Below, piece after piece: positions 32,117-34,728 of a DNA stretch of 64,000 nt. Position 1 is the first letter of the stretch, and every line of letters begins with the position of its first letter. Below the pieces are notes generated by a model that saw only the letters and a list, made by a program, of their open reading frames with translations, did not search any database and was not told the DNA's origin. This stretch comes from a virus (lineage: Duplodnaviria > Heunggongvirae > Uroviricota > Caudoviricetes). A program made the translations under genes and the position numbers. The DNA lies in IMG/VR virus record IMGVR_UViG_3300045988_154391. The stretch is one strand, 5' to 3'.

Positions 32117-32149
32117 GCGATATTACACTAATAAATTTATTAGAGCAAT
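32117..32149. promoter_or_regulatory. C1-operator-like site: perfect 17-mer (32133..32149) overlapping a partial inverted copy
   Basis: AAATTTATTAGAGCAAT is 17/17 to the reverse complement of ATTGCTCTAATAAATTT; core CTAATAAATTTATTAG is palindromic; overlaps the dmt stop and faces the tRNA cluster. Confidence 0.6.
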
Positions 32150-34728
32150 ATAGCCATAACGTCATGAGCAACACCACGAGTGTCTCCCTTACAAGACACA
32201 GAACGTCTGGCAAAGAGAGGTTCCACTCTGAAGCCTCTGTCCTGATAAAGTTCTCTGACGTTTGGCGCGCCACTGTTAGTAATGAGTACCTTTGCACCTC
32301 GGCGATGAGCATCCGTCAACAGAGACACCAGGCGTTTTTGCTCTTCAAACTTAAAGTCATGACCGGAATAGTTCGTGAACCCCTCTGTATTGGGGAGCGG
32401 TTCATACGGCGGATCGCAAAAGATGACATCTCCTTCTCCGGCAGCTTCAATCACTGCTGCAAAATCACCGCATACAAACTCAGACCGCCCTTCCGCACCG
32501 AGGAAGGCTTCCATCTCCTGTAATGGGAAATACGGAGTTTTATACTTCCCATAACCGACATTGAACTCACCGGCCTGGTTGTAGCGCGTCAATCCGTTAA
32601 AACAATGACGGTTCAGGAACAAAAACGCCGCTGCGCGATGTAAATCATCATAGACTTGTTTGTTAAACGCATTCCGTACTGCCAAGTATCCCTCCTGGGT
32701 GTTGTAGTCCAGGAAAAAACGATGTGCCAGAGTGATAAGTGAATGCTCCTCGCGTTGCAGAGTCTTGTAAAAGTTAATCAGGTCAGCATTCACATCATTT
32801 AGCAGATTTTCCTGGTATCCGGCATTCATGAAGACAGCTCCGCCACCGACGAAAGGTTCAATCAGGCGCTTCCCTTCTGGCAAATAGCGAAAGATTTGTT
32901 CCAGAACACCAAATTTTCCACCGGCCCATTTGAATATGGACCGTTCGAATTCTGCCGCTGGTTTAACTTTTCGCTCTTTTGTTTCACTTCCTTCTTTCTG
33001 CCGACATACGGCCTTAGTAATCCGATCGCCAATCCAGCGCATTACTGGTATTGCCATACTATTGCCGATCGCTTTGTAACGCGGTCCGTCAGCTGCAAGC
33101 ATCGCGGCCTCTTCTTCGCTTAAATCTGGATAGTGATTGCGAAGATATGCCAGTTCATCTGAATTAACTTTTTTACGCTTTTCCGTCGGGATCAACGTAT
33201 GCCCATCAGGAAAACCTTGAAGTCTCTCACATTCGACAGGGGTAAGACGGCGAACACTCATCATATGAGGTAAGTAACCATTCTCACCTAATTCGCCTTT
33301 TTCAATACTTTTCTGCCCCCCAAAAGATAACGCAACGGCGTCAGCTGTAGCGCGGGAATCAAGAGTAAAACTTATCTCTTTTTGCCACCCTTTACCTTGC
33401 GGTCCAGCATCATCTTTTCGCCCAATTTGTGCATGTTGTAGCGAATACGCAACAGCTGGTGGGCAGCCTGCATTTGGATTGCTATTAACAGAATTACCTG
33501 ATCGTAAAGTCGGAGAACATTCAATAGAAACATCTTGTCCATAATCTTTGCAGGAAAAAGCTACAACTGCATTTTCTTGACCATGGTTACGACCAATAGT
33601 ATGTGCCAATTCACAATTAACATCAGGATCTTGTGTTCCATGAATAGCCATCACCGCCAGATGTTCGTGACTTTCTTGTGATCTGGCACGAAGAGTGCCT
33701 GCACCTTCACGCCAACTACCAGCACCAGTACTACTGAAAACAGCTAAATCGGTTGCATCTTTAAAATCTCTGGCCTTGACAGTAGAAGCAGTCTCATCAT
33801 CAGCATATTCGCCAAATGCAACCATTCGATAAGCACCAACAAGCCCACTTCCGCGCTGCGCAAAAATCTCTTGGTTACTTGCACCGATTCCGCCAGTATT
33901 GTGTGACTGGTTAAGTGTCGGGTGAGGATTTACAGGGTTATCCCAATGGCTCCCGCTTTTAATGCCATTTCCAACATTTCCGGCAACTTCCTTCCCCTCG
34001 CCTCTGCTCGGCGCAATATTCCGGCGCACGCCTTCGAACTCAAAAAGTACCGTTGCGGGATCGAGGTCTGTTCGAGCACTTGCGACAACAAACACGCGTC
34101 GGCGTCGTTGTGCCACTCCGAAGTATTGGGCATCAAGGATTCTCCAGGCCACCTTTCGCTGCGGTCCATAAATACAACCACACTGCGGCCACTTTGGAAC
34201 ATGGCAACCGGTTTTGCCATCCCACCGCCAGAACGCGTTGCTTTTTCCTGATTCAGGTCGATCACCTGGTTCAAATGGCACATCTTCTCCAGCCAATCCG
34301 GCAAGGAAACATCCGAAGGCGTTATCTGCCGATGACAAGACTCCTGGGACATTTTCCCAGACGATAACGGCTGGTTTGAGAAATGACTCAGCCCGTTTGT
34401 CGTCAATTGCATTTGCAAGCTCCACATACTTTAAAGTTAGCGCGCCACGCTCATCATCAAGCCCACCACGTAATCCCGCGATACTGAATGCCTGACAAGG
34501 TGTTCCCCCGACGAGCACATCAGGGGATTCGATTTCCCCAGCCAGGACTTTTTTGGCAAGTTTTGTCATGTCGCCAAGGTTGGCGACATGGGGCCAGCGG
34601 TGCGCAAGAACGGCAGATGGAAAAGGCTCGATTTCAGCAAACCACGCCGGACGCATACCCAACGGTTCCCAGGCAATACTCGCGGCTTCAATTCCACTGC
34701 AAACAGATCCATAGCACAGCTCTTTCAC
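32140..34728 (-). CDS. dmt: Fused DNA methyltransferase: N-terminal C5-cytosine domain plus C-terminal Dam-like N6-adenine domain
   Basis: 862 aa; C5 motifs [27 protein letters not shown]; C-terminal FKWAGGK and DPPYEP. Confidence 0.85.

Follow-up and report, generated by a model that had tools for sequence, protein, structure and literature searches.

The dmt gene and its two methyltransferase halves

The 64,000-nucleotide (nt) stretch of Caudoviricetes DNA held as IMG/VR record IMGVR_UViG_3300045988_154391 (hereafter the window, to which all coordinates refer unless stated) is a P1-family phage-plasmid, and its minus strand carries one gene, dmt, that encodes a C5-cytosine methyltransferase fused to a Dam-type N6-adenine methyltransferase (Table 1). 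Sequence comparison makes it virtually certain that this gene is the dmt orthologue of the P1 family (Punavirus). About 4.5 kb around dmt is 97-98% identical at the nucleotide level to P1, P7, RCS47 and relatives, and the protein is the same at nearly every position as those of P1 and P7 outside amino acids (aa) 241-491. The gene shows what is expected of a P1 orthologue, with high identity to P1 dmt outside its variable recognition cassette (97-100%), the C5 half preceding the Dam half, and a place between Op68/Pdmt and Oban/Pban. P1 Dmt (AAQ14041, 754 aa) and P7 Dam (AAQ07538, 672 aa) share its locus, operon, operators and domain order. In total, 53,569 of the 64,000 bases (~84%) align with the Escherichia coli plasmid NZ_CP027575.1, with block identities of 84-99% and ~98% identity across the ban-dmt-rep-par span. 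The C5-Dam fusion is thus not new: the P1 GenBank record already annotates the gene of which this is an allele, and in P7 it is named dam. The window Dmt falls in a 90%-identity cluster of 577 database sequences, ~500 PLSDB plasmids carry dmt, and the recognition cassette of the window is found at 100% identity in E. coli plasmids (three in PLSDB, and five complete RefSeq E. coli genome records).

Table 1 Features of the dmt locus and related sites in the window
Feature	Coordinates	Strand	Remarks
dmt coding sequence	32140..34728	-	862 aa, intact; GTG start at 34728, TAA stop 32140-32142; orthologue (virtually certain) of P1 Dmt and P7 Dam
C5 catalytic core, N-terminal part, aa 1-216	34081..34728	-	motifs I, IV (PCQ, Cys78), VI (ENV), VIII (QRRRRV); AlphaFold2, Foldseek
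Target-recognition region between motifs VIII and IX, aa 217-491	33256..34080	-	275 aa
Conserved leader of recognition region	aa 217-258		allele-specific cassette from ~aa 241
Module A	33838-33954	-
Module B	33739-33837	-
Module C	33652-33738	-
Module D	33556-33651	-
Module E	33445-33555	-
Module F	33328-33444	-
Tail of recognition region	33256-33327	-	24 aa
C5 core, C-terminal part (motifs IX and X, aa 492-567), with linker to Dam half (aa 568-595)	32944..33255	-
Dam-type (D12 class) N6-adenine methyltransferase half, aa 596-862	32143..32943	-	FVGGG and DPPY motifs
hrdC, upstream of dmt	34725..35630	-	RdgC homologue, 301 aa; PF04381, 1.1e-97
uhr, first gene of operon	35623..35907	-	94 aa
C1 operator Odmt (Op68), operon promoter, upstream of uhr	35979..35995	-	16/17 consensus match
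Bivalent C1 operator Oban (Op72ab) with Pban	32122..32149	.	over last codons and stop of dmt; serves downstream tRNA/ban unit
pac-type GATC cluster	4693..4880	.	8 GATC; TGATCA/G hexamers in two groups; substrate of Dam activity

The original prediction that a single polypeptide joins an N-terminal C5-cytosine methyltransferase to a C-terminal Dam-type enzyme was confirmed by the 862-aa open reading frame (ORF), by Pfam and by the motifs read from it. The N-terminal half matches PF00145 (C5 methylase, 3.8e-36) in three stretches from aa 8, and the C-terminal half matches PF02086 (D12 Dam class, 2e-56) over aa 601-834. In the C5 half, motif I (CSGIEA, aa 10-15), an intact PCQ of motif IV with the catalytic Cys78, motif VI (WENVPG, aa 124-129, with ENV at 125-127), motif VIII (aa 207-215, including QRRRRV at 207-212), and intact motifs IX (aa 493-507) and X (aa 553-562, with GNS at 555-557) follow one another in canonical order, which together with the family fold places it among the C5 DNA methyltransferases. 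AlphaFold2 (AF2), run on this half with a 61-sequence alignment, gave a core with a predicted local distance difference test score (pLDDT) mostly >85, for which M.HhaI was the best match in the PDB (Foldseek). The Dam half has KWAGGK (aa 600-605), FVGGGAVF (aa 626-633) and DPPY (aa 772-775) intact, and it aligns with E. coli Dam structures at E ~7e-58. Loss of catalytic motifs on alignment had been named as fatal to the prediction, and on inspection all C5 and Dam motifs are in place.

The two halves are less close to the E. coli housekeeping enzymes than their family names may suggest. Dmt passes TIGR00675 (C5 methyltransferase, 110 bits against a cut-off of 100.65) and TIGR00571 (Dam family, 250 bits against 114.85). 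It scores only 22 bits against the cut-off of 710 for NF007772, the E. coli Dcm subfamily (CCWGG), so that the earlier description of the N-terminal half as "Dcm-like" holds at the level of the C5 methyltransferase superfamily and fails at that of the Dcm subfamily. Similarly, the C-terminal half belongs to the Dam family but is below the cut-off for the E. coli Dam equivalog NF008152 (243 against 441 bits), and in the alignment Pro134 of E. coli Dam is replaced by Gly. By orthology, the window Dmt very probably methylates the adenine of GATC, and the intact motifs make it likely that its C5 half is catalytically active as well.

The recognition region between motifs VIII and IX

The less ordinary part of the protein is its target-recognition region. 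Allelic difference among the window, P1 and P7 proteins is confined to the interval from C5 motif VIII to motif IX, and the window and P1 dmt genes are 100% identical at the nucleotide level up to nt 720 and again from ~nt 1500, with 50-77% identity between. Within this region we delineate six modules, A to F, of 29-39 aa, each with a TL-type motif (HPTLN, ASTVK, AGTLR, AHTIG, SPTLR and SFTLD, respectively), and a single TL pattern finds all six within aa 217-491 and none in the remaining 587 aa of Dmt. The region is also large, since that of M.HhaI and M.HaeIII is ~100 aa long; its median length is 245 aa among those top matches to the C5 half that have both motifs. The TL motif is the conserved center of C5 recognition domains, in which the base contacts are made by its flanks (PMC2413257).

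The modules behave as exchangeable units in related proteins. P1-like alleles display at least 10 architectures of the motif VIII-IX region, with lengths of 85-344 aa. The array is A-B-C-D-E-F plus tail (275 aa) in the window, B-C with a P1-specific module (167 aa) in P1, and a single module, H (85 aa), in P7 Dam. Although P1 Dmt shares modules B and C with the window, nucleotide identity there is only ~60-77%, compared with ~98-100% in the flanks. We searched 14 module types against 270 related proteins, and then against 119 more that were found with the recognition region alone. The module types occur in >70 combinations, including the order permutations DE/ED, BD/DB, EL/LE, AF/FA and ADL/ALD, and a clean swap separates the A-B-C-D-E-F of the window from the A-B-C-D-E-G of an 822-aa allele. 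For each of modules A-F, 14-108 distinct segments from divergent proteins show conservation, which is strongest around the TL motif. A 10-nt near-repeat, ACGCAAC(G/A)GC (plus strand), lies at 33330-33339 and 33447-33456, the copies being 117 nt (39 codons) apart and in frame and encoding the AVA end of modules F and E; it could act as microhomology for module gain or loss, but a repeat of two copies may be due to chance.

The same core and module vocabulary is used by standalone C5 methyltransferases of Enterobacterales prophages, which are likewise orphan and phage-borne but have no Dam fusion and occupy other genomic positions than dmt. One of 407 aa from a lambdoid nin region (P0301) carries modules A+B, and another of 547 aa (P0029) has A-B-D-E-F. 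Altogether, the C5 half has matches at E<=1e-30 in 4,524 cluster representatives. We considered whether the 1095-aa Dmt of RCS47 is a larger module array and rejected this; it is a P1-type allele plus an intein, which accounts for its length. Inteins sit directly before the catalytic Cys of the PCQ motif in some Dmt-family proteins (junctions GGTP/C...HN/CQAFS), the carriers being RCS47 dmt (aa 78-418; L003:4173-5195), P0026, P0121, P0169, P0170, P0184, P0224 and P0226. They contain Hint domains, with a LAGLIDADG homing endonuclease too in RCS47 and other long cases. The window dmt has no intein.

A parallel to this arrangement is found in the multispecific methyltransferases of the Bacillus phages SPR, rho11s and H2 (and phi3T/SPbeta), which like Dmt are phage-borne, orphan, and built on a single catalytic core, and which also carry tandem modules with a TL motif and a hydrophobic end in an enlarged VIII-IX region. 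The SPR enzyme methylates three targets. We fetched the SPR, rho11s and H2 gene sequences and compared them directly: their core is nearly identical, and what distinguishes them is the insertion or deletion of entire modules between motifs VIII and IX. The TL pattern occurs three times in SPR, four times in rho11s and H2, and six times in the window Dmt, and the distance from motif VIII to motif IX is 210 aa in SPR, 274 aa in rho11s and H2, and 275 aa in the window. Dmt thus has the traits of the Bacillus type, a single core with several TL modules and modules in varied combinations among similar enzymes, and it would work as those enzymes do from outside their lineage. It differs from them in its fusion to a Dam domain and in having more module types and permutations. 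We tried to assign targets by comparing its modules with those of SPR and rho11s, and no assignment could be made, the scores being only weakly above those of shuffles and due to the shared TL motif.

From these comparisons, the chance that the window Dmt has three or more distinct 5-methylcytosine (5mC) targets appears even or slightly better. The broader proposition, that the C5 half of P1-family Dmt and the large enterobacterial prophage C5 family are multispecific, with a repertoire set by shufflable modules of ~30-40 aa, seems to us evenly poised. Several considerations weigh against multispecificity, or against any C5 activity of consequence. The core of Dmt is only 26% identical to that of rho11s, and its modules resemble the Bacillus modules weakly (z of 3-6 relative to shuffled sequences, and due for the most part to the TL motif); close relatedness to SPR, rho11s and H2 by common descent is therefore not indicated, and the likeness is a parallel to the Bacillus enzymes rather than membership of the same lineage. 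AF2 leaves aa 232-490 at pLDDT <50, which gives the modules no structural support, and no PDB chain was significantly similar to the recognition region in a sequence search. The P1 GenBank note is itself hedged, stating "perhaps at C5 cytosine," and we found no description of the C5 activity, multispecificity or modularity of Dmt in the open literature, the search being limited to that literature and excluding REBASE and subscription journals. P1 grows on E. coli K-12, which is McrBC+, where heavy 5mC should expose the phage to McrBC/McrA; this points to limited activity or to targets lying outside the Mcr context, at least in P1's own allele. Finally, the Bacillus multispecific enzymes carry inactive pseudo-modules, as described in papers from the Trautner laboratory, so that six modules need not mean six targets.

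On the strength of those pseudo-modules, of the unfolded AF2 region, of the noncommittal P1 record, and of the failure of both the PDB search and the SPR and rho11s comparison to match any module to a recognition domain whose specificity is known, the C5 half might instead be monospecific or have one or two targets, with most of the extra modules being inactive relics or structural spacers carried along by recombination. We regard this as rather unlikely, though it is the alternative to be taken most seriously. Relics would be expected to decay, whereas the modules are conserved across many divergent proteins with a peak at the recognition motif; they also recur in many orders and combinations, and the one-module alleles of P7 type show that a single module completes the enzyme.

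A more radical alternative is that the C5 half does not catalyze methylation in vivo and has a different role, for instance to bind DNA or to target the Dam half; Dmt would then function as a Dam enzyme only. Indeed, in RefSeq these proteins bear only Dam-family names, the dmt of a laboratory P1 strain is incomplete (AF234173), and in a CRISPR interference screen dmt was non-essential for P1 in a Dam+ laboratory host, where its knock-down gave no phenotype (PMC10695390). These last two observations count against a consequential C5 activity to the extent that the C5 half is dispensable under those conditions. We nevertheless judge inactivity to be quite improbable, because the PCQ cysteine, ENV, QRRRR and the other motifs are intact and nearly invariant across relatives, the family of matches to the C5 half is so large, and versions standing alone without a Dam half are common in prophages. 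The inteins lying exactly at the catalytic cysteine of some relatives point the same way, as intein placement at such sites is typical of functionally essential positions.

Operon, GATC sites and neighboring genes

The regulatory context differs from that first proposed. Read along the minus strand, Op68/Pdmt is followed by uhr, hrdC and dmt, in synteny with the annotated uhr-hrdC-dmt operon, and dmt is therefore the last gene of an operon under Op68 and not, as had been suggested, the gene that heads it. The RdgC homologue assigned to the same operon does adjoin dmt (PF04381), but it lies upstream and not behind it, the hrdC stop and the dmt start overlapping as GTGA. An operator-like site had been noted for the operon. 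At the 3' end of dmt there is a C1 operator, made up of a perfect operator at 32133-32149 paired with one at 32122-32138; it is Oban for the downstream ban operon and not an operator of dmt. The window holds 11 C1 operator matches (<=3 mismatches to the 17-bp consensus) compared with 0.24 expected by chance, and sites such as those at 2374, 15818, 17910/17959, 21583, 51430 and 53102 are consistent with the dispersed C1 regulon of P1. Work by Citron et al. in 1989 is reportedly the experimental basis for C1 control of the dmt promoter in P1. With the promoter under such control and Op68 conserved here, synthesis of Dmt is expected during lytic growth but not in the lysogen. A sigma-70 promoter scan of the dmt region gave a count below shuffle expectation. 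Downstream, ~185 nt from the dmt stop and Pban, there is a strong terminator-like hairpin (GC-rich stem, then T7) at 31937-31956 on the minus strand, in the stretch annotated "dicF-like region" in P1; for a DicF-like RNA at this place, no Rfam family reached the gathering threshold.

The GATC clusters that had been cited as sites of Dmt action at pac and at the origin are both present, the former with eight GATC at 4693-4880 and the latter with six at 38247-38343. Dam-dependent control of pac is established P1 biology (PMC12707154 and the P1 GenBank annotation) and is carried over to the window by orthology, the pac cluster being a natural Dmt substrate. According to a 2025 review (PMC12707154), which cites Sternberg & Coulby 1990, packaging in P1 needs Dam methylation of pac, and in Dam- hosts dmt is indispensable to it. 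For the origin the proposal stands in part: the cluster exists, but dmt lies behind a C1-repressed promoter, and its GATC sites in the lysogen are therefore most likely methylated by host Dam. Given the conserved operator, during plasmid maintenance the origin cluster is probably served by host Dam and not by Dmt.

The prediction that dmt is an orphan, with no restriction partner nearby, agrees with what we found. Among the dmt neighbors in the window there is no recognizable restriction endonuclease by ORF inspection, Pfam or PADLOC, and the best PADLOC models for both Dmt halves are "orphan methyltransferase." These neighbors are tRNAs, an SPFH lipoprotein, ban, uhr, hrdC, a PAAR-motif protein, small unknowns, and replication and partition genes. 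An adjacent restriction gene, which had been put forward as the finding that would overturn the orphan status, was looked for in the window and in P1, P7, RCS47, NZ_CP027575.1 and a second, more distant P1-like element, and none lies next to dmt; nor is there a nuclease partner beside the standalone relative in the nin region of a lambdoid prophage. The defining feature of a Type II restriction-modification system, a cognate endonuclease adjoining the methyltransferase, is thus absent at dmt in these elements.

Dmt could still be the modification half of a system whose endonuclease is unrecognized or outside the window, and two features lend this some color: the usual position of the res-mod genes of the element falls outside the window, and a T5orf172 (GIY-YIG-like) ORF of 269 aa lies 5 kb from dmt at 39701-40510 (plus strand). 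That ORF has no match among the PADLOC defense models and is encoded on the opposite strand, in the interval from rep to parA. In the 98% identical NZ_CP027575.1, which keeps the same dmt, it is broken into two, a 111-aa "GIY-YIG nuclease family protein" and a 123-aa ORF, and we rejected it as a partner. The non-nuclease neighbors are the same in P1, P7, RCS47, NZ_CP027575.1 and the second P1-like element, and to repress a protective methylase in the lysogen would be lethal if a constitutive partner nuclease existed. We consider a hidden restriction partner highly improbable. The variable region at 8-15.6 kb (Ead/Ea22, DUF551, DUF4752, DUF7739) was examined as another source of a partner, and no restriction-type nuclease was identified in it.

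Other features set the window apart from P1 within the P1-like backbone. The replicon at 38247-39408 has a RepB-family initiator (ORF 38467-39408) with six GATC in the ~95 bp before it and is not the P1 IncY RepA replicon; the window is a P1-like backbone with an exchanged replicon. The place of P1 tciABC/upl/plp between ban and the tRNAs is taken by a gene for an SPFH/Band-7 lipoprotein (275 aa, 29495-30322, minus strand) that NZ_CP027575.1 has too. ARAGORN calls a tRNA-Ser (anticodon tga) at 30803-30889 (minus strand) that is unannotated in P1 and P7 at this position and has no Rfam match at the gathering threshold, and the other three window tRNAs (Met/Ile2-cat, Thr and Asn) match P1. The stretch 8067-15552, largely missing from NZ_CP027575.1, encodes Ead/Ea22-like, DUF551, DUF4752 and DUF7739 proteins and several ORFs without a Pfam match, and is an accessory region of lambdoid-prophage flavor inside the P1-like backbone. 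In NZ_CP027575.1 a SIR2-family gene and a small ORF lie between darB and ref (L005:32207-34212), a locus before which the window ends. This interval corresponds roughly to the position of the EcoP1I res-mod genes on the P1 map, and the SIR2 gene there suggests a swapped defense cassette.

Proposed function of Dmt in P1-like phage-plasmids

We think it probable that the gene in the window is best explained as an orphan bifunctional methyltransferase, the last gene of the C1-repressed uhr-hrdC-dmt operon, with a modular and perhaps multispecific C5 half. In a lysogen, C1 at Op68 would keep the operon off, as the operator is conserved here and the repression is known from P1. Upon infection or induction the operon would be transcribed, and translation of dmt may be coupled to that of hrdC through the observed GTGA overlap. 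The Dam half, at least 97% identical to the characterized P1 enzyme, would by orthology methylate GATC and so permit pac cleavage for packaging even in Dam-poor hosts, and the same methylation would be expected to block GATC-specific restriction. The N-terminal half would be a complete C5 methyltransferase acting through Cys78, whose recognition region comprises six independent TL-motif modules; by analogy with the Bacillus enzymes, the one C5 core may use each module for a different short sequence. On leaving the cell, progeny DNA would in that case already be methylated against several Type II restriction enzymes. Module sets differ between P1-like elements on a near-identical backbone, which suggests that cassettes are exchanged under selection by the restriction repertoires of hosts.

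As it was first stated, the observation correctly describes a gene already known from a textbook phage but gets the operon wrong, and by itself it changes little. The six-module cassette adds modest further interest. If multispecificity is true, it would explain the long-unassigned C5 half of Dmt and would make multispecific cytosine methylation, documented up to now in Bacillus phages and M.BssHII, a trait of phages of Gram-negative bacteria too. If, furthermore, one module corresponds to one target, the module catalog would be a natural library for engineering the specificity of C5 methyltransferases. P1-like phage-plasmids would then carry swappable multitarget methylation kits, each element with its own antirestriction 5mC signature. 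Resistance genes in E. coli and Salmonella are commonly borne by P1-like elements, and which restriction-proficient hosts these elements can enter would depend in part on such kits.

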